Shown: positions 698 through 34,630 of the stretch, piece by piece
Layout of the letters: each line of letters opens with the position of its first letter
How positions within the stretch are numbered: the first letter of the stretch is position 1
DNA from: a virus
Lineage: Duplodnaviria; Heunggongvirae; Uroviricota; Caudoviricetes
Length of the DNA stretch: 39,939 nucleotides
Direction: 5' to 3' (one strand)
Virus record (IMG/VR): IMGVR_UViG_2671180758_000025
Program-made: the position numbers and the translations under genes
Notes under the pieces: generated by a model
What the model saw: the letters and a program-made list of their open reading frames with translations, nothing else
What the model was told of the DNA's origin: nothing
Database searches by the model: none

Positions 698-1060
698 GGG
701 GCTGATTCTGGATTCGACGGGATTTGCGAAACCCAAGGTGCATGCCGAGGGGCGGTTGGCCTCGTAAAAAGCCGCAAAAAATAGTCGCAAACGACGAAAA
801 CTACGCTTTAGCAGCTTAATAACCTGCTTAGAGCCCTCTCTCCCTAGCCTCCGCTCTTAGGACGGGGATCAAGAGAGGTCAAACCCAAAAGAGATCGCGT
901 GGAAGCCCTGCCTGGGGTTGAAGCGTTAAAACTTAATCAGGCTAGTTTGTTAGTGGCGTGTCCGTCCGCAGCTGGCAAGCGAATGTAAAGACTGACTAAG
1001 CATGTAGTACCGAGGATGTAGGAATTTCGGACGCGGGTTCAACTCCCGCCAGCTCCACCA
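698..1060 (+). ncRNA. ssrA: tmRNA (SsrA), 363 nt
   Basis: Starts GGGGCTGATTCTGGATTCGACGGG and ends ...GGTTCAACTCCCGCCAGCTCCACCA, with the tag-peptide reading frame region in between; matches E. coli ssrA from memory. Confidence 0.95.
1016..1060. repeat. att core, copy 1 (within the 3' end of ssrA)
   Basis: 45 bp ATGTAGGAATTTCGGACGCGGGTTCAACTCCCGCCAGCTCCACCA repeated exactly at 33191-33235. Confidence 0.85.
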
Positions 1061-1070
1061 AATAAATCAA

Positions 1071-1103
1071 GGGGTTACGTGAAAGCGTAGCCCCTTTTTC
1101 TTT
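1071..1103 (+). terminator. Putative intrinsic terminator just after ssrA
   Basis: GGGGTTACG / loop TGAAAG / CGTAGCCCC hairpin (one G-U pair) followed by TTTTTCTTT. Confidence 0.5.
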
Positions 1104-1183
1104 GGTAGTGGCGGCAAAATGGCGACAGACTTTTGCGTCTATCTTGCCTGTCGCCATCTTGAAATCATGCAAAGAGGTTTCAC

Positions 1184-1666
1184 ATGGAAGAACTTCACTT
1201 TGTTTACATCAATGCAAATGGTCGTATCGGTGTTCACTCTATACAGAGCATCAGTTATAGCGAAAATCATATACAGGGCATTTGTAAGAACACCGATCGA
1301 ATAAAAACCTTCCGAAAAGACCGCATTCTTAAACAGTACGATTCACCAGAACAAGCCATTCAGGAATGCGCGTCATTCCTCCCCGAAAACTACTCACATC
1401 TCACTAAGCAGTCTGGTCCGAAAAAAAATACATTCGATGTGTGTTTCACCGGATTTAAGAAAGCAGATAAAGAAAGATTGGTTGATAAGGCGAATGAACA
1501 AGGATTAACGGTAAGAACCTCTGTAACCCAAAGCCTTCAGATGCTCTGTTGCGGTTACAATGCAGGCCCATCAAAAGTATCGGCAGCCAGGATGAAAGGC
1601 ACAATCATCATAGATGAGCCTGGCTTTATACATTTTCTTGAAACGGGTGAGATCCCAGATGAATAA
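1184..1666 (+). CDS. Cargo protein with WYL-like N-terminal and BRCT-like C-terminal region
   Basis: 160-aa ORF with AGAGG upstream of the ATG. N-terminus has a ...GRIGVHSI...KTFRKDRI... pattern like WYL domains; C-terminus (FDVCFTGF...GTIIIDEPGF) resembles the BRCT domain of NAD-dependent ligases. Visibly AT-rich; lies between the att core and ogr. Confidence 0.6.
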   Translation: MEELHFVYINANGRIGVHSIQSISYSENHIQGICKNTDRIKTFRKDRILKQYDSPEQAIQECASFLPENYSHLTKQSGPKKNTFDVCFTGFKKADKERLVDKANEQGLTVRTSVTQSLQMLCCGYNAGPSKVSAARMKGTIIIDEPGFIHFLETGEIPDE

Positions 1667-1694
1667 AAACCTGCCGTAGCAGGTTCTCTTTCTC
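1660..1694. terminator. Putative bidirectional terminator between the cargo gene and ogr
   Basis: AACCTGC / CGTA / GCAGGTT hairpin (1668-1685) flanked by a T-rich tract on each strand (TTTTATTC on the minus strand after the ogr stop). Confidence 0.4.
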
Positions 1695-1911
1695 AAAAAT
1701 TCATATGCCCCTGACCACCTGGCAATGGATGTGGAGGAGCAGTAGCAATCAGTGCGGGTGTCACAATAAACCGGACCACTGTTTCATGGGTAACAAAAGT
1801 GCTCCCGCAGTTAATATTTTGGCACTGGCAGTAACGCTCTTTGGTGCTTTCAGTTACTTGAAAACTGCTCCTTGTGTGTGCCGCATGACCACACTTTGGA
1901 CAATTCATCAT
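1693..1911 (-). CDS. ogr: Late-gene activator Ogr (zinc-finger)
   Basis: Translation MMNCPKCGHAAHTRSSF...ERYCQCQNINCGSTF has the Ogr/Delta Cys4 pattern; start placed at the internal ATGATG preceded by AGGGA. The supplied ORF extends to 1956. Confidence 0.85.
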   Translation of the reverse strand: MMNCPKCGHAAHTRSSFQVTESTKERYCQCQNINCGSTFVTHETVVRFIVTPALIATAPPHPLPGGQGHMNF

Positions 1912-1979
1912 ATCCAGATCCCTACCTTTGCTATCAGAATCATTGTAATGATACACAAAATACCAATATTGAGAACACT

Positions 1980-3080
1980 TTATTCCATTTCAAGATCATC
2001 AATCTTCACTTCGAGTTCAATACTGGTTGTAAAACCGTTATCTGGGCTGACGGTATGTGTCAGAGTCGTAATGGTCCATTCCGCATCATCTATCGGCTGT
2101 TTAAAACCACTGACTTTCACTGGCATTTCCGTGTAGAGATCTGCCCGACCTTCCGCCAGTTGTAGCGATAATGACGCAACGCCGCGTTGCAGGCGTTCCC
2201 ACTGCATTTTCGCTGCCCGTTCAGCGTTGCTCCGGTTGGCATAAGTGCGATTAAGTACCAGCACGTTTTCATCCGTACCCACCAGGTAATCGCCCTGCTT
2301 CGCTTCCGGCTCTTTCTTCTGATTCTTAGTCCTGCGCTTACGCTTCACCGTTGTGCTTTCTTTCTTCGCGGGTTCGCGGGTATGCAACCAACTGGCAATT
2401 ACGCCCGTATAGGCTCCGCGATCTGCCAGGGTAAAGCGGTGACTGTCGCCGTCCTTACGTGTGATAGTGATCACCGGTAGTGGTTTACCGCTGGCACTTT
2501 TACCCTGTCCCTGCCGGATGAATAACAGATTGCCATTTTTCACCGACGCAATAGCACCGTACTGGCGCGCCAGCCGCATCAAAAAACTGCCGTCACTCTC
2601 ATTAGTCTGGTCTATATGCTCCACGGGTTTATCCGACAAGTCTTTAGCCAGTGCCATCTTCAGTTTGTGCCGCGCGGCTATTTCCTTCACCACTTCCCCG
2701 ACCGTGGTCTTGTGCCACGACTTTTCACGGCGGGTATTCAGCGTTTCCCGAAAATCAGCACTTCGCGCCCGGATAGTCAGGCGGTCCGGTGCGCCAGTGT
2801 GTTCAATCTCGTCCACCGTGAATGCCCCTTTCGGGAAAAGCGGCTGCCCCTTCCAGCCCAGCGCCAGCGTAATGACCGCACCACGGCGCGGCAGCACGAT
2901 TTTTCCGTCAGCGTCGTCCAGCTCCAGATCAAGCTGGTCCGCTTCAAAGCCCCGGTTATCCGTCAGCGTAAGCCCCATCAGGCGGTTATCCAGCACAGTA
3001 GTGATATCCCTGCCCTCAATACTGATGCTGAATGCGGGAGTTTTGTTGCCCTTGTTAAGCAGTTCAGAGCTGAAATTCAC
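1980..3080 (-). CDS. D: Tail protein D (P2 gpD homolog)
   Basis: 366-aa ORF at the end of the tail operon, overlapping the upstream U gene by 4 nt; translation recognised as gpD family. Confidence 0.9.
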   Translation of the reverse strand: MNFSSELLNKGNKTPAFSISIEGRDITTVLDNRLMGLTLTDNRGFEADQLDLELDDADGKIVLPRRGAVITLALGWKGQPLFPKGAFTVDEIEHTGAPDRLTIRARSADFRETLNTRREKSWHKTTVGEVVKEIAARHKLKMALAKDLSDKPVEHIDQTNESDGSFLMRLARQYGAIASVKNGNLLFIRQGQGKSASGKPLPVITITRKDGDSHRFTLADRGAYTGVIASWLHTREPAKKESTTVKRKRRTKNQKKEPEAKQGDYLVGTDENVLVLNRTYANRSNAERAAKMQWERLQRGVASLSLQLAEGRADLYTEMPVKVSGFKQPIDDAEWTITTLTHTVSPDNGFTTSIELEVKIDDLEME

Positions 3081-3562
3081 GACAGCAGCCCTCCCACCGT
3101 TTTACTGATATCGCTTAAAGCAGATGTTGCCGTTTCCTGCAGATTATTCAGTTGCGCACTGAGATCACCGAACATATCGGACAGGGATTCATCCACTCGT
3201 TTGAGCGACAGGGTGAACTCAATCCGGCGCGGCATACCGTCGCGGAAAAACTCCGTTTTAGTCTGATTCAGTCCCTCAATCACATACATGCCGTAAATCG
3301 TGCCGCTGCCTTCAATCAGGGGCCATGCTTTCCCCTGTTCTGCCATCTGCTCCAGTGCCAGCAACGACAGCCTGCCGCCTGTTATCTCCGGCATAAGAAC
3401 GCCAGAAAGCGTCAGCATGTCGTTATCCGGTCCCAGAAACTGCGTTGACGGGCGTCGGTTAACCCGGCTGTTTGCCGCATGTCGCCAGCTGCGTTGATAC
3501 TGCAGTTCCTGATACGGAACGGTGCGCAGCATAAACACGTACAATCCCAGCACCATCATCAT
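3077..3562 (-). CDS. U: Tail protein U (P2 gpU homolog)
   Basis: 161-aa ORF between T and D with 4-nt overlaps on both sides. Confidence 0.88.
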   Translation of the reverse strand: MMMVLGLYVFMLRTVPYQELQYQRSWRHAANSRVNRRPSTQFLGPDNDMLTLSGVLMPEITGGRLSLLALEQMAEQGKAWPLIEGSGTIYGMYVIEGLNQTKTEFFRDGMPRRIEFTLSLKRVDESLSDMFGDLSAQLNNLQETATSALSDISKTVGGLLS

Positions 3563-6500
3563 GCGTCGTATCCCCCCTGATCGCTGTAGTTACTCCTGGC
3601 TTTTGCCTTCAGCCTGCGTTCACGTTCATCAAGCTGGCGTGCCACCTCCCGCGCAATATCCTGCGCACTTTGTCCTGGCTGCGTCTGAATGATGATCTGC
3701 GTCGGTGCCTCAATCCGTTGAACGAGCGGCACAGTGGCTGCGCGACTCACAATTGCTTCTCCACCTTTCGCGGGAAGTGCCAAAGGGTGCAACGGTGGAA
3801 GCTCTGCTGGCGCGGCAGCAACGCCCATCATTCCGGCAACAACGGCAGCCAGTGCAGCTGTATTTCTCCGGCTGGTCACATTTGCCGGGCCGTTAACAAT
3901 TTCCGGCCCGTTTTCACCGACGATGCCAAACTGCCCGCGCGGGATATACCCGCCGCTGTCATACAACCCCGCAAAGCCATATCCCCATGACGGAAAACCA
4001 CCCGATGTCATCATCACTTTACCGTCTGCATTCACCGTCGCAGGTTGCTGACGCGTCACGCTTTCCGGCAGTTTTGCCTTTGCGGCTTCTTTACTGACAA
4101 TGCCGAGTTTTTCCAGCAACCAGGATACGCCGGATTTGAGGGAGTCCAGCGGATGCATAACCATATTCAGCCCTTCCGCCAGCGCCTCCCCGAATCGTCG
4201 CCCCATTTCCGCTGCGCTCTGCAGTTCGGCAGAAGTCGACTTAACGGGTGTCAGCAGATCAGTAAACCAGCCCCACAACGCCTGCACTTTATCACCAATC
4301 CACTGGAACACAGGCTTAAGTGGTTCGAACGCGGCACTGACGGGACCTGCCGCTGCTTTGAATCCCTCCACCACACCACCGAGAAACGCGGTGATGGGTT
4401 GCCAGTATTTCCAGACAACCAGCGCCACACCCGCCAGTGCAGTAACCACAAGACCTATCGGACTGAGCAGAGCACCTAACAGACCAGACACGGCATACAG
4501 GGCAACGCGCAGCATCACCAGCGGACCGGATGCCAGTACTCGTAGCACCGCGCCTGCGGCAGTCAGCCCGCCGCGTAGTGCTGCCAGTGGATTCATAAAC
4601 ATCACAGCAACAGCACGTAAACCGGATAATCCAGACCGCAAAAGTGCAACCGGCGCACCTGCTACAGTTTTCAGGACATTTCCCGTCAGTGATGCCGTGC
4701 GGCGCAAAGACGACAACGGCGCAGTAAGTAAACCCGCTGCGCTGCCCGTTGAAGCAAGCCCGCGTCGCTGCAGTGCAAGTGGTGCGCCAGCCAGCCAGGA
4801 CAACGCGCTGCTGGTTCGTGTTACTGCTGCCGTAACGGAAGGTAACGTTTTGATACCCAGCACAGAGAATCCCAGACGGATCACTGCCAGCGGCCCCAGC
4901 ACTGCAGCCAGCGCCACCGCTAAGGTGCCGAGGCCTACGGTAACCGCAGCCACCACAGCGGCTACTTTCATCAGTGTGCCTGTCAGTTCCGGGTTAGCTT
5001 CCACCCAGCGGCGCAACGCCCCCGTGATGCTTTTCACCGTGTACAGAATATCCATCAGCGGCTGGCGCAGCGTTTCGCCCAGGCTGCTGAAGGTGTTCTG
5101 CGCTCCGGTTTTGACCAGCAACCACTGAGCAGAAAGTGAGTCTTTGTTGATGTCGGATTCTTTCTGCATGGAACCGAGCGCATCATTGCCCGCAGTCAGT
5201 TTTAGCTGGCGCTGCAGTTCCGGCAGGTTGTTTGCCAGTTTCGCCGCGTCATCGCCAAACTCTTTACCAAACAACATGGTCATGGCAGACAGGCGCTTAT
5301 CCTGCGGCAGTGCGTTCACCTTCTCCAGCACACGCTGGATAGTTCCCATCGCATCCTTCGTCATCTGCTTTTCAATCACTTCAGGATTGAGCTTCAGCAG
5401 ATTCATTCCTTCAAAGAAACTCTTGCTTTGCATGGTGGCAATGGACAATTCACGCACCATCGCGTTTGCTGCACTGGCTGCAACCTCTGGCGCAGCACCC
5501 AGTGTCAGGAAGGTGGAACCCAGCGCCGCCGCTTTACGATAATCCAGACGGTCAGCCACACCGCCCAGGCGTTGCATGACATCAATGATGTCCGCCCCTT
5601 TCGACATGGCGTTATCATCCAGATAGTTCAGCGCATCACCGAGCTGTTCAATATTGCGGGTAGGTATTTTGTAGAGCTGGGCGATTTTCCCCAGACTTTC
5701 TGACAGTTCATCCGCTGGCAGCTCAAAGGCTGTTGCCGCCTTTGCCGCCGTGCTGGCGAAGGCCAGCAGGTCACGTTTCTGGTCTTCCCAGCTGTCGTCA
5801 GGGTTTGCGACGTTCATGCGCGCCCCACCTTCAACCAGTGCGGCGAAGTCCACAGCACCGTTTTCCATCGGCAACTGTTCGCTGGCAGCCTTGATGGCAT
5901 CCTGCATTTCATAAAAACGCGCAGTGCGATTGCCATTATCGTCACGCAGACCATTGACCTGCTTTGCCACACCTTTCATGGCATCTTCCATGTTGGTATA
6001 GCTTTTTACTGCCGCCATCACTGGTGCGCCCATTGCCAGCCCTGCAGCCGTGGTGGTGGCTCCGGCACCTGCAATCCGATCCCTTACTTCAAGACGCCTG
6101 GCGTAAGCCCCCCGGGCGGCGTGCATTTTTCGCTGTTGCTCCCCGACACGTCGTAACCTCGCTTCCTGCTCAGAAAGCTGCCTGTTATAACGCATCGTTT
6201 CACGGGTAATGCGGGCCGTCGCACTGGCGCCATCATTAGCTGAAATACCAGCACGATAAAGTTCTGCACGCACAAGCGCCGTCTGCTGCTGCAGCTTTTT
6301 CTGGCGTTCTTCCAGGCGCTGAACAGCCAGCCGTTGACGGCCCATAGCAACAACCTGACGTTGCGAAGGCGGCCCCATCGCTCCCAGTTCCTGACTGAGC
6401 AAATTTGCACGCTGGCGGGCATAGTTCAGCCTGTCGCCTAATTTCTGATTTTCTGCCTGCAGCTTTCGGAAGCTGTCCAGACTGCTCCCGGCCTGATCAA

Positions 6501-6636
6501 GCTGCTTTATTGCATCGCGGGATTTTTTGACAGCAGCAGCCAGTTCTCTTGAACTGGCCTGCGCAGATCGAAATGGGCGGGTGAGCTTGTCAACCGCATT
6601 AAGAATGACCTGCAGACGCAGGTTGTTATCACTCAT
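3559..6636 (-). CDS. T: Tail tape measure protein (P2 gpT homolog)
   Basis: 1025-aa ORF with coiled-coil N-terminal half and Ala/Gly-rich hydrophobic central region; located after the E/E' chaperone pair. Confidence 0.9.
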   Translation of the reverse strand: MSDNNLRLQVILNAVDKLTRPFRSAQASSRELAAAVKKSRDAIKQLDQAGSSLDSFRKLQAENQKLGDRLNYARQRANLLSQELGAMGPPSQRQVVAMGRQRLAVQRLEERQKKLQQQTALVRAELYRAGISANDGASATARITRETMRYNRQLSEQEARLRRVGEQQRKMHAARGAYARRLEVRDRIAGAGATTTAAGLAMGAPVMAAVKSYTNMEDAMKGVAKQVNGLRDDNGNRTARFYEMQDAIKAASEQLPMENGAVDFAALVEGGARMNVANPDDSWEDQKRDLLAFASTAAKAATAFELPADELSESLGKIAQLYKIPTRNIEQLGDALNYLDDNAMSKGADIIDVMQRLGGVADRLDYRKAAALGSTFLTLGAAPEVAASAANAMVRELSIATMQSKSFFEGMNLLKLNPEVIEKQMTKDAMGTIQRVLEKVNALPQDKRLSAMTMLFGKEFGDDAAKLANNLPELQRQLKLTAGNDALGSMQKESDINKDSLSAQWLLVKTGAQNTFSSLGETLRQPLMDILYTVKSITGALRRWVEANPELTGTLMKVAAVVAAVTVGLGTLAVALAAVLGPLAVIRLGFSVLGIKTLPSVTAAVTRTSSALSWLAGAPLALQRRGLASTGSAAGLLTAPLSSLRRTASLTGNVLKTVAGAPVALLRSGLSGLRAVAVMFMNPLAALRGGLTAAGAVLRVLASGPLVMLRVALYAVSGLLGALLSPIGLVVTALAGVALVVWKYWQPITAFLGGVVEGFKAAAGPVSAAFEPLKPVFQWIGDKVQALWGWFTDLLTPVKSTSAELQSAAEMGRRFGEALAEGLNMVMHPLDSLKSGVSWLLEKLGIVSKEAAKAKLPESVTRQQPATVNADGKVMMTSGGFPSWGYGFAGLYDSGGYIPRGQFGIVGENGPEIVNGPANVTSRRNTAALAAVVAGMMGVAAAPAELPPLHPLALPAKGGEAIVSRAATVPLVQRIEAPTQIIIQTQPGQSAQDIAREVARQLDERERRLKAKARSNYSDQGGYDA

Positions 6637-7065
6637 CGTTGGCCCCGCTTCTCTGAATCGCTTTATACCGCCATTCCAGCACTTCGGTCAGCGGCATAAC
6701 GTCAGTAACGGATGGCGGCCAGTGAAAAATGGTGGCGATATCTGCCACCAGATCGTCAACCGTCAGGCTGTCGGTAAACCGGCAAGCACCGACTTCTTCA
6801 ACAAAAAAGTGACAACCTCAACCGACATGGCAGTGAGATCTGCCGGGTCCATCTCTGCAATTTCCTGTGCAGTCAGTGCCGGACTGGAGATGCGGGGGAT
6901 CACGGTCATCATCGCGTTTACATCCATATCCATAATGGCCTGCAGGCGTGTACCGCGCAGCGCACCGGACTGCGGTTTACGCAGCACAATTTCGGTGATT
7001 TCTGTTTTACCGCGCTTGATGGGGGTATCCAGTTGAATGGTCTTTTCAGTCTGCTTATCGCTCAT
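6629..7065 (-). CDS. E+E' tail chaperone made by programmed -1 frameshift (slip at 6808-6802)
   Basis: After a -1 slip at TTTTTTG the -1 frame stays open for 59 codons and stops at TGA 6631-6629, overlapping the T start codon (6636-6634). Total span 437 nt, i.e. 3n-1. Confidence 0.75.
6763..7065 (-). CDS. E: Tail assembly chaperone E (P2 gpE homolog)
   Basis: 100-aa ORF containing the slippery heptamer T-TTT-TTG near its 3' end. Confidence 0.88.
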   Translation of the reverse strand: MSDKQTEKTIQLDTPIKRGKTEITEIVLRKPQSGALRGTRLQAIMDMDVNAMMTVIPRISSPALTAQEIAEMDPADLTAMSVEVVTFLLKKSVLAGLPTA

Positions 7066-7119
7066 TTTGCTGTCCTGTCAATTGGGTTCTGGCGCGGTAT
7101 TCCGCGCCGTTCAGATATA

Positions 7120-7635
7120 TCAGAGGCCGAGGGCGTTGCGGTGCGCTTCCATCAGGTCCACACCGTCCACAATTTCCACCATGTTGATAAGGTCCACTTC
7201 ATAGAGCACCTCACCATTGATGGTCAGCTTCGCGTAGCTGTTGGTACTGGTCACTTTGGTGGTGTTGCTTTCGCCCGTCTTCCACTCGCCGGAATCCACT
7301 TCTTTGTGACGTCCACGCACGACAAGCTCCACGGCCTGCACTTCCCCGGTATCGTCACGCTGAATAGAGCCAGTAAAGCGCAGCTGGATGCCATCCACCG
7401 TGGCTTTACCCATCTGTTTAAACAGCAGCAATTCAGTACCACCAATGGAAAATTCTGTGTCCAGCGCACTGTCATCAAGCCCCAGATCCACATCCACCGC
7501 ACCCGGCATTCCGCCGCCGCGATACTTCTCATATTTGCGGGTAAATTTCGGCAGCGTCAGCGACTCAACGATCCCCTGCCAGTTGTTCCCGTCGTTAAAC
7601 AGGTTCAGGTGTTTTAATTTGCGTGGTAAAGCCAT
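7120..7635 (-). CDS. FII: Tail tube protein (P2 gpFII homolog)
   Basis: 171-aa ORF directly downstream of the sheath gene; translation recognised as FII family. Confidence 0.9.
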   Translation of the reverse strand: MALPRKLKHLNLFNDGNNWQGIVESLTLPKFTRKYEKYRGGGMPGAVDVDLGLDDSALDTEFSIGGTELLLFKQMGKATVDGIQLRFTGSIQRDDTGEVQAVELVVRGRHKEVDSGEWKTGESNTTKVTSTNSYAKLTINGEVLYEVDLINMVEIVDGVDLMEAHRNALGL

Positions 7636-7644
7636 GTTGTCCCC

Positions 7645-8817
7645 TTACGCGCTGACCTGGCTGGCGAAATTCACCAGGTACTGATCGGTGATGCGCTGAC
7701 GCAGCATCAGGTTTTCAAGTGGCGGCACTGGCGTGTAGTCGTAGTCGATGGTGAGTTTTCCGGCTTTCAGCGTGTCTTTGTCGTTCACCGACTCATCCAG
7801 CCAGCAATCACCACCAATGAGATAGCCCTGACTGACCAGGCTGCGCATTTTGGCGCGGATACCTTCGATAATGTCGCGGGCCAGCGACGGGTTAAGCGGT
7901 TTATCCACCGCCCACATGTGTGCTTCTGCCATCGTGTCCATCAGCACCTGCGCCGTGCGGGTGTAGTTTTCGAAGGCAAAGAGCGGGTCATCACTCAGGC
8001 AGCGGGAACCCCAGAAGCGGAAACCGTCTTTACGCACAAGCGTGGTGACGTCGTTCTGGTTCAGCAGACCTGCATCGGTTGCCGGGTCCTGCAGATCCCA
8101 GAACACATCTGCAGAAATTCCGGTGACACCGTTCACGCCCACGTTGGACAGGCTTTTGTGCCATCCGGTCTGCTCGTCAATTTTGGCGCGCAGACCAAGC
8201 GCACGGGCGGTGGCATATGCCGTTGCTTCGGCATTCAGCACCGTGTCCCAGCCAGTAAAGTCAGGCCAGATCAGCATCCCTTCGCGCTGGCTGAAGTTTT
8301 CGCGGTAAGTGATCGCCTCCTGCACTGTCTTGCAGCCATACGCTGACAGGTAAGCAAATCCACGCAGGCTTTGCGCCACGCTCAGCAACTCAGTAGCTAC
8401 CGCCTTGGTGTCGTGGCCTGGCACGCCGAGAATGCGCGGTTTAACGCCGAGCTGTGACTGGGCAGATAACAGGGCTTTCATACCTGTTTTTTTACCTTCA
8501 GCAGTCACTGCGCCGATGATATTGGTCGTGGTTTCGTCTTCCGTTTCACCCTGCGGCACACGCACAACAATGGTCACGGGTTTTGCCTGGTCAGCGATGG
8601 CATCCAGCGAACGGGCCAGAGTACCGGACTCACCCGCTTTACCGCTGGCAGTCAGCACATCAGTGATCAGCACTGGTTTATTAAGAGGAAACATTTTTGC
8701 ATCGGCATCATCGCCCGTGCAGACCATACCCACGATGGCGGTGCTCACCGTGGTAATGGATCGGGTGCCTTCGTTGACTTCAACAACGCGCACCCCGTGG
8801 TGGTAATCCTGAGCCAT
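7645..8817 (-). CDS. FI: Tail sheath protein (P2 gpFI homolog)
   Basis: 390-aa ORF; translation recognised as contractile sheath; first gene after a TGT-N12-ACA box. Confidence 0.92.
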
Positions 8818-8892
8818 AAGGCAGTCTCTCCGGTAGTAGAGGGGGTCTGCCTATGTTCTGGTTGATACGAGCAGGATGCACGTTATGTGGTT

Positions 8893-8910
8893 TGTATGAA
8901 AAATGGCACA
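8893..8910. promoter_or_regulatory. Ogr-type activator box (TGT-N12-ACA) of the F operon late promoter
   Basis: TGTATGAAAAATGGCACA, centred about 85 bp upstream of the FI start codon. Confidence 0.55.
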
Positions 8911-8949
8911 ACGGCGGATACAGGAATCCCCGCAGACGCGGGGATGTAT

Positions 8950-24839: not shown

Positions 24840-24933
24840 TATATAATAATCTTACTGATGTAAAACGTTTTTTTACGTTCATCAGCCTGATATGCCTGGT
24901 ATTATTAAGAGCACGAATTGTTAACCCGCGTAA

Positions 24934-27348: not shown

Positions 27349-28202
27349 GCACGTACTCCGTACACGGCAGAACTATCCACGCCACGCGAATAATCAAATC
27401 CCACCCAGCAGCGCGGCCCGGAAACAGCAATGATTTCTGTTGCTGATTTACCCTCGCCAGCTGCCACACCGATGCTGCGTTTTACCTTGATATAGTGGTG
27501 AGTAAAATTGCGATACAGCGAACGGATCAGGGATGTGTCACTGTTAGAAACAATGACCGGATGTCCTTCTGATGACCGATGTTCAAGAACGGATGCCAGG
27601 TGATACTGGTCATCTTCAGTGAAACCATCAGTGTGATAGCCGGAAAACGTACCGTCATACGGCGGATCGCAATACACCACATCCCCCGCCTTCAACATCG
27701 CCAGCGTTTCATCAAAGCTGGCGCAGATAAACATTGCTCGCTGGGCTTTTTCTGCAAATGCGCGAATTTCTTTTTCAGGGAAATACGGATTTTTATAATT
27801 ACCGTAGGGAATGTTGAAATGCCCGCTCTTGTTATAGCGACATAAACCACGGTAACCGTGACGATTGAGATACAGGAAATATACCGCTTTCATGAAATCA
27901 GTAATTTCAGTTGAGTAATTAAACTCCTGCCTTATGTTGTAATAAGCCACCTCCCTGTTTGCGATCTCAAATAAAACTCTGGCGCGAGATATAAACGATT
28001 CACAATCAGCAGCAACCTTTTTATAGAGGTTGATTAAATCAGGATTAATATCCGCAACAAGATAGCTGGGGTACTCCGTCTCCATCATCACAGCACAGGA
28101 ACCCGCGAAAGGTTCAACCAGTCGCGGGCCAGCAGGAAGATGCTTTTTCAGTTCGAACATAATGGCGGTTTTATTTCCCGCCCATTTCAGGATGGTGCTC
28201 AT
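27345..28202 (-). CDS. DNA adenine methyltransferase (Dam family)
   Basis: N-terminus [11 protein letters not shown] and a DPPY catalytic motif; start placed at the internal ATG. The supplied ORF extends to 28262. Confidence 0.85.
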
Positions 28203-28426
28203 ACAGCACCTCCGTTGTAATGTTTGCCTTTCAGCTCTGCGATTTCCTGACAGGTAATGCAAAGCTGCACACCTGGAATGGCACGGCGGCGTGCTGGCGG
28301 AATTGGCGCTTCACACTCAATGCAAAGCACGCGGGACACGCCCGGCGTTTTGGCACGGGCAGCACGGATATGACGCTGGCGTTCTTCTTCAACGCGCTGC
28401 TGTACGAGATCCATTGCATCAGCCAT
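28199..28426 (-). CDS. TraR/DksA-type C4 zinc-finger protein
   Basis: 75-aa ORF with CIEC...CITC zinc-finger spacing. Confidence 0.7.
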   Translation of the reverse strand: MADAMDLVQQRVEEERQRHIRAARAKTPGVSRVLCIECEAPIPPARRRAIPGVQLCITCQEIAELKGKHYNGGAV

Positions 28427-28665
28427 TAGTGGATCTCCTGCGCTTCGTTCTGGATTGCTTCAGCTGCCACACGCAGCAGTTCAGCCGCTTCAACGTGGTT
28501 TAGCTGGCGGGATGTGATATGGCACGCAAGGCTATCAAGGCGAGCTGCCATTGCTTCAGCTCTTGCCCGACGTTCTTCCAGACGAGCCTCTGTCAGTAAA
28601 ATATTAAGTCCTGCGTCATCCGGTCCGGTTTTAGTCGAGAGGGTTTCAATATTACGCATAATCAA
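28426..28665 (-). CDS. Hypothetical early-operon protein
   Basis: 79-aa ORF, tightly packed in the early operon. Confidence 0.5.
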   Translation of the reverse strand: MIMRNIETLSTKTGPDDAGLNILLTEARLEERRARAEAMAARLDSLACHITSRQLNHVEAAELLRVAAEAIQNEAQEIH

Positions 28666-28726
28666 TTCTCCTGAATTTAGATAAAGGAATGCCCGGCGGG
28701 TTTACGCCATGAATTTCATTAATTGG

Positions 28727-29068
28727 TTAATTCGGCATGGCTAGCCGTCTGGGAAATAAGCTCACCACTGCACGAAGATGATTCATTACTTTAATCAACT
28801 CCCGCTTTTCGTCAGTGGTCAGCTCATTAATGCTGATGCTATGACGTTCAGCTGGAATTTTTGCTATAAAGAATATGGCAGCCAGTGCCCGTTTATTTTG
28901 TTCGCTATTAATATCCCGTGAATCACGCATATCTTTAATAAACCGCTCAAGCTCTGACTCAATATTCAGACCAAAAACTTTCGCCCTTAACTCCGCAATG
29001 TGATTAAGTCCATTCAGGCGTTCACCGGGGCTTAATGGAACAGTCGCCGCAGCGCCATTAATTGCCAT
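28727..29068 (-). CDS. Hypothetical early-operon protein
   Basis: 113-aa ORF in the early operon. Confidence 0.55.
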   Translation of the reverse strand: MAINGAAATVPLSPGERLNGLNHIAELRAKVFGLNIESELERFIKDMRDSRDINSEQNKRALAAIFFIAKIPAERHSISINELTTDEKRELIKVMNHLRAVVSLFPRRLAMPN

Positions 29069-29090
29069 AATTCATATCCCCAAAACGCAA

Positions 29091-29315
29091 CTATCGTTCT
29101 TTGTTCTTACGGTAACGTTCAAGAGGTGATACATTTTTTCGTATCGTCTCTTTAACCTGCTCTCCCCGTAAAAACGTCCCATCATTTAGCGTGAAAAAGT
29201 AACTGCCATCGCCAGACAACGACGGATAACAACACAGCAAATCATCTTCAGGTACTGAATAACTCTCCCCTCTGTAACGAAACTGATAAACCACTTCACT
29301 TTCCGCTGCATACAT
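29091..29315 (-). CDS. Hypothetical early-operon protein
   Basis: 74-aa ORF; overlaps the 3' part of the 29186-29482 ORF in another frame. Confidence 0.45.
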   Translation of the reverse strand: MYAAESEVVYQFRYRGESYSVPEDDLLCCYPSLSGDGSYFFTLNDGTFLRGEQVKETIRKNVSPLERYRKNKER

Positions 29316-29482
29316 TTTGACTTTCTCCGTTTCCTCGTGGTCAATTCAGACAGCAATTCATCTTGTGAATGACATGGATGCCAGCGTTTACCATCCTCAC
29401 CCATGATCCAGCCGTGACCGTAGTGCATTGCCGGACTTTGTTTTACCAGCAGCGATGCAAATGATGGTTCTTTCGTCAGCAT
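29186..29482 (-). CDS. Hypothetical early-operon protein (3' end uncertain)
   Basis: Start at MLTKEPSF... directly after cII; the C-terminal ~45 residues look low-complexity and overlap the next ORF. Confidence 0.4.
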   Translation of the reverse strand: MLTKEPSFASLLVKQSPAMHYGHGWIMGEDGKRWHPCHSQDELLSELTTRKRRKSKCMQRKVKWFISFVTEGRVIQYLKMICCVVIRRCLAMAVTFSR

Positions 29483-29489
29483 AAGCACC

Positions 29490-29999
29490 TCACAGCAATC
29501 CGAATGAAGCACCGAGGCCAGTCACGGTATCAACTGCACTCGCCATCGCAGGATTAGCCTGTAAACGGGCCTGCAATGAAACAGCCGCCAGCGCCATCAG
29601 TCGTGTTACAGAGTTAATGCTGCTGATAGCATCACGACGACCGGCACAGGTTTTTACATCGCCAGATACCGCACCTGCCGCGACACGCCCGATCTCTGCG
29701 GTTGCACTCATGACGTAATGTGGCAGTTTCTCTTTTGCCACCTCATTAATCGGTACACATGGTAGGCAGTGAATCTGTGCCAGAAAGCCATCTACCAGCG
29801 TTGAATCTTCAGTCAGATCGGTAAGCAACCAGATTTCTGGCGCTGTGAGCTGATGCGGTTGATCTGGGTTGAGTTTGTTTCGCAGTGTCTGAACATTCAT
29901 TCCTGCACGTTCTGCCAGCTTCGCCATATTGTGGCGTAGTGCAAAAGCTCTACAGGCTTCATCAAAATGCGGATGTTTGGAAATCTTGTAATCAAACAT
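29490..29999 (-). CDS. cII: CII-like lysogeny-establishment activator (186 type)
   Basis: 169-aa ORF directly downstream of apl; translation resembles phage 186 CII as I recall it. Confidence 0.75.
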   Translation of the reverse strand: MFDYKISKHPHFDEACRAFALRHNMAKLAERAGMNVQTLRNKLNPDQPHQLTAPEIWLLTDLTEDSTLVDGFLAQIHCLPCVPINEVAKEKLPHYVMSATAEIGRVAAGAVSGDVKTCAGRRDAISSINSVTRLMALAAVSLQARLQANPAMASAVDTVTGLGASFGLL

Positions 30000-30031
30000 G
30001 CTGCCCCCTTAGAAAGTTCTCATAATTGAAC

Positions 30032-30280
30032 TTAGCCACCAACGATGACATTAAAGTTGAAATTGGATTGGCCCATGTTTTTCCTGACTTGTTCCTTTTT
30101 GTACTCAAGGTAACGTATACATACTCTGTCTTTCGGTTTTTCCTTTTTTTCTAAAAACTTAGCGAGCTTACCATTATGAATCATTTGATATACCGAACCG
30201 CGAGAGTAGCCTTCCCATTCCGCGAACTCAGCTGGTGTCGCCATCACTTTTGGTACACGAATTGAAATGTCGTTGCTCAT
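30032..30280 (-). CDS. apl: Apl/Cox-like excisionase-repressor (small HTH protein)
   Basis: First gene of the leftward early operon, divergent from cI; start placed at MSNDISIR.... The supplied ORF extends to 30313. Confidence 0.7.
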   Translation of the reverse strand: MSNDISIRVPKVMATPAEFAEWEGYSRGSVYQMIHNGKLAKFLEKKEKPKDRVCIRYLEYKKEQVRKNMGQSNFNFNVIVGG

Positions 30281-30334
30281 AGTGCAGTATCTCTTAGTTT
30301 GTAATCGTCTCATCTCGTTTTATGTGGTTTGGTT

Positions 30335-30385
30335 TTGCTTTTCAAACCATGAATGGATATTAAGATCGCATTTTATATGCGTCAA
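30335..30385. promoter_or_regulatory. Immunity switch region with back-to-back lytic and lysogenic promoters
   Basis: Minus strand TTGACG-17-TAATAT reading toward apl; plus strand TTGCTT-17-TATTAA reading toward cI; the two -10 hexamers overlap. Confidence 0.4.
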
Positions 30386-30396
30386 GGGGTTTGATT

Positions 30397-31029
30397 ATGA
30401 GTCTAATCAAGGGTGGAAACGATAGTGGGGGTCGTGATGCCATCAACAGGCTGATAAAAGCCTACAATTTCAGCTCACGCCAACAACTCTGCGAACACTT
30501 AAAAGTATCAAAAAGCACCATGGCAAACAGATACTTAAGAGATAGTTTTCCAGCAGAATGGGTAATTCAATGTGCACTAGAAACCGGGATCTCGCTTCTT
30601 TGGTTGGCAACCGGACAGGGTGATATGTATGCAGATAACAGTGACGTAAACATTCTCAAAAATGATAATGACGTCACGATTAGACCACTTTCTAAAATCG
30701 TAGCTCCCAGTATCAAATACACAGAGTTAAGAAATGGTGAACTTCAATCATATGACGAAATTTTATTAGATAGCAGGTTGGTTGAGGGCGACTCGTCAAA
30801 CTATCTATTCATACAAACGACAACAGAAAGTTTTATTGTTGATGTATCTGTAAAACAGATCAGTAATGGCTCCTGGCTTGTTGATATTGATGGAGTGAAA
30901 AGCATCGTAAAAGTAGCTCGAATTCCCGGAAATAAGCTTGTTGTTCATCAGGAAGAAACAACCTTTGAATGTGCAGTTGATGACGTAGACGTTGTAGGGC
31001 GTGTGGTAAAAGTGATTAAGAGCATCTAA
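30397..31029 (+). CDS. cI: CI immunity repressor (186 type)
   Basis: Start at the ATG with AAGGGG 7 nt upstream; N-terminal HTH-like region plus C-terminal domain; followed 3 nt later by int. Confidence 0.8.
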   Translation: MSLIKGGNDSGGRDAINRLIKAYNFSSRQQLCEHLKVSKSTMANRYLRDSFPAEWVIQCALETGISLLWLATGQGDMYADNSDVNILKNDNDVTIRPLSKIVAPSIKYTELRNGELQSYDEILLDSRLVEGDSSNYLFIQTTTESFIVDVSVKQISNGSWLVDIDGVKSIVKVARIPGNKLVVHQEETTFECAVDDVDVVGRVVKVIKSI

Positions 31030-31031
31030 TC

Positions 31032-32060
31032 ATGACGATCAGAAAACAGCCGAACGGAAAGTGGTTATGTGAATGCTACCCAAACGGGAGAGATGGCAAA
31101 CGCGTACGCAAACAATTTGCGACGAAAGGCGAAGCCATTGCGTTTGAGAATTTCACCATGGATGAGGTAAACAAGAAACCTTGGCTGGGAGAAAAGGAAG
31201 ATCGGCGACCACTGTCAGAAGTGATTGAGCAATGGTATTCCCTGTACGGTCAGACACTCGCTGACCCTAAGCGATTAATGGCTAAGCTAAAAATCATTTG
31301 TAATGGGCTTGGCGATCCCATCGCTTCTGAATTGACAGCAGGTGATTTCACAAAGTACCGGGAAGCCAGATTAAAAGGTGAGATCAAAAACGAAGATGGC
31401 GTGCTCATGTCACCGGTTAAGCCCCGCACGGTAAACCTTGAACAACGCAATCTGTCATCGGTGTTCGGTACATTGAAAAAACTAGGGCACTGGTCCGCAC
31501 CAAACCCACTGGCAGGGCTTCCAACCTTCAAAATTGCTGAAGGTGAATTGGCTTTTCTTTCCACGGACGAAATCAAACGCCTGCTTAATGCCTGCGCCGA
31601 ATCTCAAAACACCAGCCTACTAATGATTGCAAAAATATGCCTGGCTACTGGTGCGCGATGGAGTGAAGCAGAAAACCTACAGGGCCACCAAATATCGAAA
31701 TACCGAATTACTTATACAAAGACCAAAGGCAAGAAAAACAGAACAGTACCCATATCACAGGAGCTGTATGACGAACTCCCAAAGAACAGAGGGAAGTTAT
31801 TCTCACCATGTAGAAAAGCCTTTGAACGAGCAGTAAAACGGGCAGGTATAGATCTACCGGAGGGCCAATGCACCCACGTACTGCGCCATACATTCGCTAG
31901 CCATTTTATGATGAACGGCGGAAACATACTCGTGTTGCGCGACATCCTTGGTCACTCGGATATAAAAATGACTATGGTTTATGCACATTTTGCACCTGAT
32001 CATTTAGAGGATGCAGTATCAAAAAACCCTTTATATAGATTAAAATGGACCACACCATGA
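31032..32060 (+). CDS. int: Tyrosine integrase (P2/186 type)
   Basis: 342-aa ORF with the C-terminal catalytic signature ...HVLRHTFASHFMMNGGNILVLRDILGHSDIKMTMVYAHF. Confidence 0.92.
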   Translation: MTIRKQPNGKWLCECYPNGRDGKRVRKQFATKGEAIAFENFTMDEVNKKPWLGEKEDRRPLSEVIEQWYSLYGQTLADPKRLMAKLKIICNGLGDPIASELTAGDFTKYREARLKGEIKNEDGVLMSPVKPRTVNLEQRNLSSVFGTLKKLGHWSAPNPLAGLPTFKIAEGELAFLSTDEIKRLLNACAESQNTSLLMIAKICLATGARWSEAENLQGHQISKYRITYTKTKGKKNRTVPISQELYDELPKNRGKLFSPCRKAFERAVKRAGIDLPEGQCTHVLRHTFASHFMMNGGNILVLRDILGHSDIKMTMVYAHFAPDHLEDAVSKNPLYRLKWTTP

Positions 32061-33076
32061 CTCAAGAATTCGTAATTAGCTATATAAAAAAACCAGAAAC
32101 ATCTACTTTCCTTATAATTTTTTATTTAATATATCTATTTATTGAATACACAAAAAACAAAAATAATAATTATTTCGAAATGACTGAGGAAAGGCTAACA
32201 AAACAAAATTTATTTAAACAATCCATCAGAATACCTATTATCTCATCCTTATACTTCGGTATATTCTCATGGATGGGACACTCTCCTCAATTTGATGCTG
32301 ATGGATTTTCAAACTTCATTGAAATAAGCAAGTTGCCTATCGCTCTTCTTTCCCTTTCGATACCCTTTGTAGCTATAGTCGCTAACATTCACAGAACAAT
32401 ACAAACGGAAAATCAAATTAGGAAAACACAGCAACAGATAGATCTAGTGACTGAGAAAAACCGCAGTGATGCTTACTACGCTCACCTCAAGAATTATTCG
32501 GATATGTTTAAAACGTTACCGTCATTTACCCTTTCTCGTCGAGATAATACAACTTTCGAAAAAGACACAATTAAACTATCTGTAGATCATACCTACTCAT
32601 TATATAAAAAAATATTCACAAAATCCTCAATCTCTACTGGATATAATAATGAAGTTGATAAATCATTCCTTGAAAAATTAGAAAATATATATAACAGCAT
32701 TGGGCATGAAATAGCAAGATACAATCAGCTTTACCCAAAACAAGTTAACATATCTAATTTAGAGAACATTGAAGCACAAGTGGTATGGCTGTGTAGAGAA
32801 CTAGGAGTTAATTATGAAAGAGAAGTCAACAAATTTGAGATTTTTGATCCGATATCAAACTTAGGAATAGAAACATCATTTTCAGATGAAAAAGAAATAA
32901 AAGAAATGCTTCGTGGATTACGAGATATATTGATATCTCTGTACATGCTAATTGATCAAAATACAATTATTTTCCAAGCAACTGCCAATAACGGTGATTT
33001 TTTAGCCAATTATGCTTACGATCCAGATTTTTTGATTTTTAAGGGGATCTTACCTATAGATTCTCAAGGTAAATAA
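32057..33076 (+). CDS. Hypothetical AT-rich membrane protein between int and the att core
   Basis: Three predicted TM segments in the first ~115 residues, then a ~220-aa soluble region of unknown family. Start chosen at the ATG overlapping the int stop (ATGA); an upstream ATG at 32045 is also possible. Confidence 0.6.
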   Translation: MTQEFVISYIKKPETSTFLIIFYLIYLFIEYTKNKNNNYFEMTEERLTKQNLFKQSIRIPIISSLYFGIFSWMGHSPQFDADGFSNFIEISKLPIALLSLSIPFVAIVANIHRTIQTENQIRKTQQQIDLVTEKNRSDAYYAHLKNYSDMFKTLPSFTLSRRDNTTFEKDTIKLSVDHTYSLYKKIFTKSSISTGYNNEVDKSFLEKLENIYNSIGHEIARYNQLYPKQVNISNLENIEAQVVWLCRELGVNYEREVNKFEIFDPISNLGIETSFSDEKEIKEMLRGLRDILISLYMLIDQNTIIFQATANNGDFLANYAYDPDFLIFKGILPIDSQGK

Positions 33077-33190
33077 GTGGCGGCATTTTGGCGGCAGAGC
33101 ATTAAAAATGCCTAAAACGGACAAACACCGCAAAATACTAACATTCTGTTTTTAAATATAAATAACTGTTTTCACTATATTAAAAATGGT

Positions 33191-33235
33191 ATGTAGGAAT
33201 TTCGGACGCGGGTTCAACTCCCGCCAGCTCCACCA
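33191..33235. repeat. att core, copy 2 (junction between the prophage and the second island)
   Basis: Exact 45-bp copy of ssrA positions 1016-1060. Confidence 0.85.
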
Positions 33236-33400
33236 CTTTTTAGTTGTTTGAAGTTCAATGAAGTCTACTAAGCCCACACAGCACAAGCTCTGCGGGCTTT
33301 TTTACGTCTATTGTCGTCCAGTGAGAATTGCTGAGAACTACGAGTTATGGCACCCTGAATGGGACCCATTAAGAAGGGTCCAAAAACCGAGGGTCCCAAA

Positions 33401-34630
33401 ATGGCAAAAATCGCTAAGAAGCTCACTGACACTGAAATCAAAAGCACCAAGCCAGCCGATAAAGAAATCAACTTGTTTGACGGTGATGGTCTGATTCTAC
33501 GAATCGCTCCTTTGGCGAAAGGAGGCAAGAAAAATTGGTATTTCAGGTATGCAGTACCAGTGAGCAAGAAAAGAACCAAAATGAGCCTTGGGACATATCC
33601 TCACCTTACCCTTGCAAGAGCCAGAGCCTTACGTGATGAATATCTCTCCTTTCTGGCAAATGGTGTTGATCCCCAAATCCATAACAACGATAAGGCGAAG
33701 GCATTAAAGAGTGCTACTGAGCACACTCTCCAAGCCGTAGCGCGGAAATGGTTAGATGAGAAGGTAAAGACATCAGGTATCTCACAAGACCATGCAGCAG
33801 ACATCTGGCGCAGCTTAGAGAGAAATGTCTTTCCCGGTCTGGGTAATGTCCCTATCAATGAGATCCGACCTAAGCTCTTAAAACAACACCTTGATCCTAT
33901 TGAGCAACGAGGCGTATTGGAAACTCTACGCCGTATCATTTCACGTCTGAATGAAATCTTCCGGTGGGCAGCTACTGAAGAACTTATTGAGTTCAACCCG
34001 GCTGACAACCTTGGTCAAAGATTCAGTAAACCAAAAAAGCAAAATATGCCTGCCCTTCCCCCAAGCGAATTGCCAAGGTTTATGGAATCTTTGACGAATG
34101 CGTCAATCCGGTTGGAAACACGTATGCTAATTGAATGGCAATTGTTGACATGGGTTCGTCCGGGTGAAGCCGTTCGCGCAAGGTGGTCTGATATTGATAC
34201 AACCAACAGCATTTGGAACATTCCTGCTGATTTCATGAAAATGAAAAAGCTTCACAAAGTTCCTTTGAGTAAAGAAGCTTTGCGCATCCTTGAATTAATG
34301 AAATCAATAAGTGGGCATAGAGAATGGGTTTTCCCCAGCATAAAAGCGCCTCTTAATCATATGCATGAACAAACAGCCAACGCAGCTATCATCCGAATGG
34401 GGTTCGGAGGCGAGCTTGTAGCTCACGGTATGCGTTCTATTGCACGAACAGCGGCAGAGGAGTCTGGTAAATTCAGAGCTGAAGTTCTTGAGGCAGCGCT
34501 TGCCCACTCGAAAAAAGATGAAATTATCGCAGCATACAATCGTGCAGAATATCTGATAGAGCGACAGAGTTTGATGCAATGGTGGAGTGATTACGTTCAA
34601 GCTCAAAGATCAAATGCTCTGGTAGCCTAA
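33401..34630 (+). CDS. intA: P4-type tyrosine integrase (IntA-like, CP4-57 family)
   Basis: Start at MAKIAKKLTDTEIKSTKP... with GAGGG upstream; typical P4-family N-terminus; 165 bp from the att core. The supplied ORF begins at 33359. Confidence 0.88.
   Translation: MAKIAKKLTDTEIKSTKPADKEINLFDGDGLILRIAPLAKGGKKNWYFRYAVPVSKKRTKMSLGTYPHLTLARARALRDEYLSFLANGVDPQIHNNDKAKALKSATEHTLQAVARKWLDEKVKTSGISQDHAADIWRSLERNVFPGLGNVPINEIRPKLLKQHLDPIEQRGVLETLRRIISRLNEIFRWAATEELIEFNPADNLGQRFSKPKKQNMPALPPSELPRFMESLTNASIRLETRMLIEWQLLTWVRPGEAVRARWSDIDTTNSIWNIPADFMKMKKLHKVPLSKEALRILELMKSISGHREWVFPSIKAPLNHMHEQTANAAIIRMGFGGELVAHGMRSIARTAAEESGKFRAEVLEAALAHSKKDEIIAAYNRAEYLIERQSLMQWWSDYVQAQRSNALVA

Follow-up and report, generated by a model that had tools for sequence, protein, structure and literature searches.

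The Islander collection contains 125 arrays of at least two islands, with the tmRNA gene as the most enriched target. In E. coli, the tmRNA locus is defence-island hotspot #9, where prophages, satellites and other elements are found (PMC10121019). Islander-type tandem arrays have the organization that is also seen here, namely an intact target gene, a first element, a displaced 3' fragment of the gene and a second element with its integrase adjacent to that fragment. In E. coli K-12, the island CP4-57 (integrase IntA; attR = psaA) has a P4-type integrase directly downstream of ssrA. CP4-57 remains able to excise, but as psaA is imperfect, the ssrA that remains has lost U357 (PMC10107115). Among phages, Cartapus (NC_070909; Elveevirus, Peduoviridae) is a Fels-2-like prophage in E. 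coli LF82 and is spontaneously induced (PMC9928086). Two-component-like paraMORC modules that combine Response_reg_2 proteins with HEF_HK proteins have been associated with C5-methylases (Bellieny-Rabelo et al. 2021, PMC8011034).

The window, which is the whole 39,939 nt stretch recorded as IMG/VR IMGVR_UViG_2671180758_000025, had been described in a first-pass annotation as holding an intact tmRNA gene, a P2/186-like prophage, an exact 45-bp copy of the ssrA 3' end and, 165 bp later, a different P4-type integrase, and this was taken to reflect sequential integration of two elements at one att site. All four components were found again by ARAGORN and Rfam calls, homology to Cartapus, a direct-repeat search, and Pfam and NCBIfam matches. 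From comparison with other genomes, we consider it very probable (about 0.9) that the phage inserted into an E. coli-type ssrA that already carried an older, integrase-bearing island cut down to a stump by IS3. The stacking is real but follows a well-known, ordinary pattern, as tandem tmRNA arrays are already documented, and the locus serves as a clean worked example in which the newest element lies beside the tmRNA gene while its predecessors are displaced outward and degenerate. The features of the target gene and of the prophage ends are:

1..483 (+), smpB, host core gene upstream of ssrA (Pfam SmpB, E 1.5e-57)
698..1060 (+), ssrA (tmRNA), intact (one tmRNA call each from ARAGORN and Rfam)
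1016..1060 (+), attL core, 45-bp identity block equal to the ssrA 3' end (exact direct repeat; 45-mer also in Cartapus attP)
1069..1106 (+), terminator-like hairpin (12-pair stem) and T-run in the phage left arm
1109..1156, three TGGCGRCA repeats (1109+, 1120+, 1149-) in the left arm, candidate arm-type Int-binding sites
33078..33096 (+), two TGGCGGCA repeats 11 bp apart in the right arm, candidate arm-type sites (conserved in Cartapus attP)
33191..33235 (+), attR core, displaced 45-bp ssrA 3' end (exact repeat)

Positions 1-1062 of the window are 99.6 % identical to K-12, and the two ssrA genes are identical at 363/363 positions. The Rfam tmRNA score was 295.8 bits with the full model covered, and the tag peptide is ANDENYALAA. 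The last 45 nt of this ssrA are the attL core and derive wholly or partly from the phage attP. The hairpin that follows is conserved in Cartapus attP and in the K-12 fossil, and its position suggests that it terminates the regenerated ssrA.

The sole long direct repeat in the window is the exact 45-mer at 1016-1060 and 33191-33235, the copies being 32,175 bp apart. A 26-mer from it, with up to three mismatches allowed, has exactly two occurrences in the window, and none were expected (100 shuffles). When the prophage ends are joined, they rebuild the Cartapus attP (92 % identity over 308 bp, including the exact 45-mer), and the 45-bp repeats are therefore the attL and attR cores of the prophage. 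The attR core is, in addition, the place where ssrA and the island formerly met. For the same phage in strains 13P477T and E371, the alignment ends exactly at 33235. Similarity to other prophages of the family picks up again from 33078. The arm-repeat motif TGGCGRCA has 16 matches in the window, where 3.65 were expected, and five of these are clustered in the two arms. The prophage thus has the intact target gene, the co-oriented displaced 3' fragment and the internal integrase by which Islander recognizes islands.

The general frequency of cryptic prophages could suggest that the repeat arose by chance or as a duplication artefact, and that the 'prophage' is a defective remnant not delimited by it. 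However, the shuffles gave no chance match, the limits of the homology with Cartapus attP, and with the same phage elsewhere, fall on the repeat with single-base precision, and 39 of the 46 Cartapus proteins compared have a full-length or near-full-length homologue in the prophage, which leaves such an artefact a negligible probability. The prophage itself is delimited and composed as follows:

1061..33190, Peduoviridae (P2/186/Fels-2-like, Elveevirus-like) prophage, 32,130 bp, gene content complete (27.5 kb aligned to Cartapus at 82-97 %)
1184..1666 (+), BRCT-like cargo gene, 160 aa ('putative exonuclease'), Cartapus gp32 homologue (98.8 % aa identity; phrog_2561)
1693..16292 (-), late region: ogr, D, U, T, E/E', FII, FI, tail-fibre assembly, H, I, J, W, V, S, R, LysB, lysis genes, holin, X (Cartapus gp08-gp31)
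16292..22357, head module: L, M, N, O (-) and P (terminase), Q (portal) (+) (97.7-99.8 % aa identity to Cartapus gp02-gp07)
22366..23965 (-), cos-flanking cargo: DUF4145 protein (22366-23064) and an unknown 203-aa protein (23354-23965)
24017..29999 (-), early/replication region: DinI-like, gpA replication endonuclease, Dam, DksA-like, DUF2732, DUF5347, Fil, CII
30032..30313 (-), Cox/Apl-like excisionase and repressor (71.6 % aa identity to Cartapus gp36)
30391..31029 (+), 186-type CI repressor (Pfam Phage_CI_repr and Phage_CI_C; 54.6 % aa identity to Cartapus CI)
31032..32060 (+), prophage tyrosine integrase, P2 type (Pfam Int_N and Phage_integrase; 93 % aa identity to Cartapus Int)
32045..33076 (+), cargo gene, 343 aa, between int and attR (phrog_17460)

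Early-region genes were named from Cartapus homology and the RefSeq products of a related prophage. The Peduoviridae gene order is present (Q P / O N M L X ... R S V W J I H ... FI FII E T U D, ogr) and is identical to that of Cartapus. The morphogenetic and replication proteins of the two share 82-100 % aa identity (98 % for the gpA endonuclease), except for the C-terminus of the tail fibre and the tail-fibre assembly protein. Two tail-fibre assembly proteins match Cartapus weakly (41 % and 28 % aa identity), and Fil and the tail-fibre protein match their counterparts in part. In the 46-protein comparison, no prophage homologue was found for Cartapus gp14, the alternate tail-fibre segment, the invertase or the RES protein; The prophage has neither the invertible tail-fibre segment nor the invertase of Cartapus, and its fibre tip is different. 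Both have an attP in which the exact 45-bp ssrA end lies with the arm repeats. The Cartapus cos junction is 97.9 % identical at 23065-23352, with cos cleavage near 23225/23226. The lysogeny module is complete, with 186-type CI, Cox/Apl, CII and the tyrosine integrase next to attP (gp34-gp37 homologues). As CI and Cox are only ~55 % and ~72 % identical to those of Cartapus, the immunity of the prophage differs.

Beyond the attR core, the window contains:

33236..38746, stump of an older ssrA island, 5.5 kb, no distal att (from comparison with relatives)
33285..33305 (+), terminator-like hairpin and T-run, supplied by the island
33401..34630 (+), P4/IntA-type integrase, full-length ORF, 409 aa
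34669..35085 (+), predicted membrane protein, 138 aa, that travels with the RR/HK-like module (phrog_6556)
35157..36923 (-), Response_reg_2 protein, 588 aa (Pfam PF19192, E 3.7e-31)
36907..38746 (-), HEF_HK/HATPase_c gene, 5'-truncated (Pfam)
38747..39939 (-), IS3, cut by the window end (transposase domains, Pfam; RefSeq annotation)

The integrase, which begins 165 bp past the 45-bp copy, includes the Pfam domains Arm-DNA-bind_3, Phage_int_M and Phage_integrase, matches NCBIfam PRK09692 at 440.6 bits (cut-off 434) and shows 48 % identity with K-12 IntA across 408 aa, where the conserved R, H-x-x-R, H and Y positions line up. Its orientation relative to ssrA is the same as in CP4-57 and the spacing is similar. 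However, the island and CP4-57 carry different cargo, their DNA is not similar past ~110 bp, and CP4-57 has kept its attR while the island has not. That the phage and the island used the same att site is shown for the gene only; the identity block of the phage is 45 bp and that of CP4-57 only ~20 bp of imperfect identity. The island's own att identity block is no longer readable.

The membrane protein shares 81 % aa identity with the neighbour of the RR-like gene in Citrobacter amalonaticus, and relatives of the RR/HK-like pair in Citrobacter and Serratia are 73-83 % identical. As in the paraMORC modules, a PF19192 gene adjoins a PF19191 and HATPase_c gene. The HK-like gene is homologous to a 997-aa Citrobacter protein across 621 aa (82 %), right up to where IS3 begins, and ~384 N-terminal residues, with the HATPase_c_3 domain among them, are missing. 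The 572-aa 'ATP-binding protein' of the existing annotation is thus a gene fragment cut by IS3. In C. amalonaticus, the HATPase_c_3 domain is present and a Dcm-type methylase precedes the gene, whereas in the island both have been removed by IS3, and the paraMORC-type module is therefore probably inactive. PADLOC gave no convincing match for any island gene. A complete copy of the island cargo, from which the island's attR might have been read, was sought in complete E. coli genomes, where only ~71 % identical relatives at another locus were found.

As P4-like satellites begin with a P4-type integrase, rely on P2-like phages as helpers and have been reported in the tmRNA hotspot (PMC10121019), the integrase region might be supposed to be a satellite forming one functional pair with the adjacent prophage. 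We regard this as very improbable. The 5.5 kb after the integrase encodes only the membrane protein and the RR-like and HK-like genes, no homologue of AlpA, primase-helicase, Sid, Psu or Delta was found in the island, and there is no spare coding space. The distal att is absent and the stump occurs in hundreds of phage-free genomes.

The first-pass annotation had anticipated a third copy of the ssrA 3' end beyond the IS3. The rest of the window contains none, and none turned up over 20 kb of downstream sequence in two relatives with the same island (L001 and L004); beyond the island, searches with the 26-mer (up to three mismatches), with 12-16 nt k-mers and with blastn-short gave only chance-level matches in the window and in relatives. 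The IS3 end, TGATCCTACCCACG, starts at 38747, where it cuts the HK-like gene, and in relatives the IS3 is joined to the 3' half of ygaQ, which is cut at position 35042 of the K-12 locus (L002). This end was placed by reading the sequence and from the K-12 ygaQ alignment, as the imperfect ends escaped the inverted-repeat search. Because the window stops inside IS3, the ygaQ' junction and the absence of a third copy were read from relatives with islands 99.6-100 % identical to this one. The IS3/ygaQ' junction was found in 505 genomes. Judged from these alignments, the IS3 is the deletion scar that ends the island, and the truncation of the island and its fusion to the ygaQ 3' half account for the missing copy. 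The second element has its own integrase, as had been claimed, but it is not bounded, and for an Islander array its own distal tDNA fragment is lacking; by this structure it is a non-mobile 5.5-kb stump, or fossil, rather than a bounded island.

Occupancy of the locus was compared across 5,426 complete E. coli genomes, which include the island alone, the phage alone, both, or other islands such as CP4-57 in K-12. The existence of island-only, phage-only and tandem genomes bears out two sequential integrations at ssrA. The stump is present at 80 % or more in 560 of these genomes, and both elements are in tandem in 63. The reconstructed ssrA/int junction is unbroken in 959 genomes, a count that takes in diverged integrase alleles, and the best matches are 100 % identical. 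In AMSHJX01, an identical island with the same int-to-IS3-to-ygaQ' structure lies directly on ssrA with no prophage. Conversely, 13P477T carries this phage (99.3 % identity for int, cargo gene and arm) without the island, and beyond the position equivalent to 33235 it has the sequence that follows CP4-57 attR in K-12. Roughly 100 genomes have the phage at ssrA. The island of L001 is 99.6 % identical to this one, but the L001 prophage differs (89-97 % identity, other cargo), which indicates independent lysogenizations of island-bearing hosts. The same truncated stump is thus seen with and without a prophage and behind different prophage variants, from which it follows, by a parsimony argument, that the island came first, decayed, and was followed by phage insertion into regenerated ssrA.

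The reverse order, in which the phage lysogenized first and a P4-type island later entered the displaced 45-bp fragment at attR, was also considered. This fragment holds the terminal ~20 bp apparently used by IntA-type integrases (from the K-12 psaA comparison), and either 45-bp copy is a target in principle. However, the stump lacks a distal att and was immobile once truncated, yet the same IS3/ygaQ' scar is found on ssrA and behind varied prophages, and island genomes without the phage arm number ~500 as against 63 with the tandem. The reverse order is hence quite unlikely.

With the island first, a P4/IntA-type island would have integrated at the ssrA 3' end, bringing its own terminator and a cargo of Dcm-methylase and paraMORC/HEF_HK, Response_reg_2 module, and the hairpin at 33285..33305 would have served ssrA until the phage arrived. 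Comparison with relatives shows that IS3 then deleted the island's distal portion together with its attR and the chromosome up to mid-ygaQ, which left int, the membrane protein, the RR-like gene and the 5'-truncated HK-like gene in a stump unable to excise. A temperate Peduoviridae phage near Cartapus/Fels-2, with the last 45 bp of ssrA between arm-type repeats in its attP, subsequently recombined with ssrA. The phage copy and terminator now complete ssrA at attL, and the displaced 45 bp lies at attR beside the island. In this stacking, the oldest element is farthest out from the tmRNA gene.

With identical cores and intact-looking Int, Cox/Apl, CI, cos and morphogenetic genes, the prophage should be able to excise precisely, and excision should leave wild-type ssrA rejoined to the island stump. 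Excision and particle formation have been shown for its relative Cartapus (PMC9928086). As the two 45-bp copies are identical, unlike the imperfect psaA of CP4-57, prophage loss should restore normal tmRNA, whereas CP4-57 excision in K-12 damages ssrA. The orphan integrase has been kept intact in a dead island across hundreds of genomes, with a dN/dS of 0.05 relative to the O55:H7 allele, though this low value may simply date from the time when the island was mobile. It is an unlikely speculation that this IntA-type integrase might still be active, and recombine the two ssrA-end copies or recruit ssrA-targeting elements. If so, a fossil island would modulate prophage curing and acquisition at the tmRNA hotspot via its orphan integrase.

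The variable cargo slots of the prophage are of possible interest for cataloguing phage-borne defence genes. No Pfam, NCBIfam or PADLOC match was found for the 343-aa protein encoded between int and attR, a slot occupied by the RES protein in Cartapus and by another gene in L001. PADLOC gave a weak PD-T7-4 match among the cos-flanking cargo (22366..23965), and gp32, whose homologue is encoded here at 1184..1666, is expressed as a moron in LF82 lysogens (PMC9928086).

The tmRNA gene, called as a single gene by both ARAGORN and Rfam (295.8 bits; tag peptide ANDENYALAA), lies directly downstream of smpB and is the same as K-12 ssrA at 363/363 positions. Its 3' end recurs as an exact 45-mer, the only long exact direct repeat detected by the repeat finder. 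A 26-mer from this repeat, allowing up to 3 mismatches, occurs twice in the window and 0 times in 100 shuffles. Beyond the second copy, the first ORF encodes an integrase. The positions of these features in the first-pass annotation were all reproduced using ARAGORN, Rfam, the repeat finder and RefSeq annotation:

698-1060, + strand: ssrA (tmRNA gene)
1016-1060 and 33191-33235: exact 45-bp direct repeat
33401-34630: integrase gene, starting 165 bp beyond the repeat (start from RefSeq annotation of identical DNA)

The 45-mer copies enclose a 32.1-kb Peduoviridae prophage. Among isolated phages, its nearest relative is Escherichia phage Cartapus (NC_070909; Elveevirus), a Fels-2-like prophage of strain LF82 that is spontaneously induced (PMC9928086). 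The two DNAs form a colinear alignment of 27.5 kb, and the Cartapus structural, lysis and replication proteins have full-length homologues (82-100 % identity) in the prophage, except for the tail-fibre C-terminus and assembly protein, which differ, and Fil, which is partial. With a cos junction also present (23065-23352, located by homology to Cartapus), the earlier description of a complete P2/186-like prophage following the tmRNA gene is borne out. The differences from Cartapus are modular. CI and Cox/Apl are only 55 % and 72 % identical, respectively, and immunity is therefore different. The tail-fibre tip and assembly gene differ, the invertible segment and invertase are absent, and the cargo gene adjoining int is another gene. 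The tail-fibre gene H includes an internal 239-nt direct repeat (9895-10133 and 10375-10613, 71 % identical).

The slot between int and attR (32045-33076) is variable and may be a hotspot for morons or defence genes. Here it encodes a 343-aa protein of no assigned function, matching only phrog_17460, while Cartapus has a RES-domain protein and strain 07-4299 a different hypothetical protein. Cargo genes also flank cos (22366-23965) and attL (1184-1666). Those near cos encode a DUF4145 protein, with a weak PADLOC match to PD-T7-4 (E 1.2e-6), and a 203-aa protein of no assigned function. The gene adjoining attL encodes a 160-aa BRCT-like protein, and transcription of its Cartapus homologue is 15-fold over background in lysogens (PMC9928086).

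Joining the right prophage end, the 45-mer and the left end in silico gave a sequence that matches attP in the Cartapus virion genome (92 % over 308 bp, exact 45-mer included), which identifies the repeats as the base-exact attL and attR cores of this phage. The motif TGGCGRCA is found 16 times in the window (3.65 expected), and five copies, in pairs 11 bp apart, are in the two arms (1109-1156 and 33078-33096). Cartapus attP shares the arm motifs, which are probably Int sites of the arm type. The left arm holds a strong terminator-like hairpin directly 3' of the ssrA end, so that the regenerated ssrA takes its 3' end as well as its terminator from the phage.

The integrase beyond attR has a P4-type domain set, scores above the cut-off of the NCBIfam IntA-like model and is 48 % identical over its full length to K-12 IntA, the integrase of CP4-57. 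Reading this region as a P4 satellite was rejected because satellite hallmark genes are absent. Three genes follow, encoding a 138-aa membrane protein, a Response_reg_2 protein and a HEF_HK/HATPase_c (HK-like) protein, and then an IS3. The latter two belong to the two-component-like paraMORC modules of Bellieny-Rabelo et al. (PMC8011034). In Citrobacter amalonaticus, the HK-like homologue is 997 aa with an N-terminal HATPase_c_3 domain, and a C5 cytosine methylase precedes it. Homology to this protein extends upstream of the annotated start of the window gene and ends exactly at the IS3 edge (38747). About 384 N-terminal residues are missing, as is the methylase, and the 572-aa HK-like ORF is therefore a fragment. 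Relative to the O55:H7 allele, the integrase has a dN/dS of 0.05, a value that could stem from past mobility and is not in itself a sign of present function.

Citrobacter, Serratia and other Enterobacterales have relatives of the island cargo that are complete (73-83 % amino acid identity; the C. amalonaticus locus L009, 7498-13991; loci L008, L010 and L012). No complete copy of the cargo module was found in 5,426 complete E. coli genomes. L009 includes a Dcm-type C5 methylase, the 997-aa HATPase_c_3/HEF_HK/HATPase_c protein, a Response_reg_2 protein and a small membrane protein, and this looks like a putative four-gene methylase-linked conflict module. In three loci, a tRNA-Leu(CAA) gene, not ssrA, is 4-7 kb from the module.

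As the window stops inside the IS3, the downstream sequence was read from complete genomes with a 99.6-100 % identical island. In strains 07-4299 and AMSHJX01, the 3' half of ygaQ, an alpha-amylase pseudogene, directly adjoins the IS3, with glaH and gabDTP beyond it. This junction falls midway through ygaQ of K-12 and is common to 505 genomes. Relative to K-12, the distal part of the island with its attR, ypjA, pinH, ypjB, ypjC, ileY and half of ygaQ are deleted. A third copy of the ssrA 3' end had been predicted past the IS3, but no ssrA-like sequence above chance level was found in the 20 kb downstream in these relatives. From these sequences, the second 'island' appears to be a fossil ending at a deletion scar, not a bounded island. 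In O55:H7 DEC5E (L005, 20166-25850), a 99.3 % amino acid identical integrase allele and the same membrane protein precede other cargo (a DUF6119 protein and HxsA). An IS3-family element has truncated this island as well, and directly adjoins the final ~6 nt of a psaA-type att fragment. E. coli ssrA islands seem to be repeatedly eroded by such elements.

The island-alone, phage-alone and tandem states were all found. ssrA directly adjoins this integrase, or an allele close to it, in 959 genomes (the reconstructed junction in one piece, best matches 100 % identical), and the island is present at ≥80 % in 560. The left arm of this phage family is on ssrA in 165, and the phage right arm, 45-mer and island integrase are in tandem in 63. 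The same phage without the island is in strain 13P477T, where the integrase, 343-aa cargo gene and right arm share 99.3 % identity with the window, up to exactly position 33235. Beyond this point, the sequence is that after the CP4-57 attR (psaA) in K-12. We note that NZ_CP019275.1 (CP019275.1; 37,446 bp) from 13P477T, filed as a separate replicon and in a phage collection, contains most of the prophage plus host ppnK/nadK from the ssrA neighbourhood, and is probably an assembly artefact, neither plasmid nor free phage.

The claim of sequential integration of two elements at ssrA is thus correct in outline, though the second is not a bounded island. The most parsimonious order, from sequence comparison, is that the island would have integrated at ssrA and been truncated by the IS3, and phages of this family would then, on more than one occasion, have lysogenised hosts with the island. 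The opposite order, phage first and island later, is disfavoured; lacking a distal att, the truncated stump is immobile by site-specific recombination, yet the same stump and IS3/ygaQ scar are found both directly on ssrA and behind differing prophage variants. The island of 07-4299 matches that in the window at 99.6 %, against only 89-97 % for its prophage, which has other cargo.

Int, Cox/Apl, CI, cos and the late genes appear intact and the att cores are identical; from this, precise excision should restore wild-type ssrA fused to the stump. In contrast, when CP4-57 excises in K-12, U357 is lost and tmRNA is inactivated (PMC10107115). Stacking at ssrA is real and already known in kind. Ample precedent exists for tandem arrays at tRNA and tmRNA genes; 125 are catalogued in Islander, with the tmRNA gene the most enriched target, and the tmRNA locus of E. 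coli has been described as a hotspot for prophages, satellites and other elements (PMC10121019). The case described here is a clean example and corrects the idea of a bounded second island.

K-12 MG1655 includes a second, degenerate psaA-like copy of the ssrA end between pinH and ypjB (L002, 30930-31044; about 2783429-2783543). It runs directly into ~62 bp from the left arm of this phage family, in which the same hairpin terminator is present and the arm repeats have decayed; identity to 1048-1122 of the window is 90.7 %. This copy, also found in O55:H7 (L005, 31322-31363), looks like a fossil attL of an older lysogeny, displaced from ssrA by CP4-57 and the ypjA segment.
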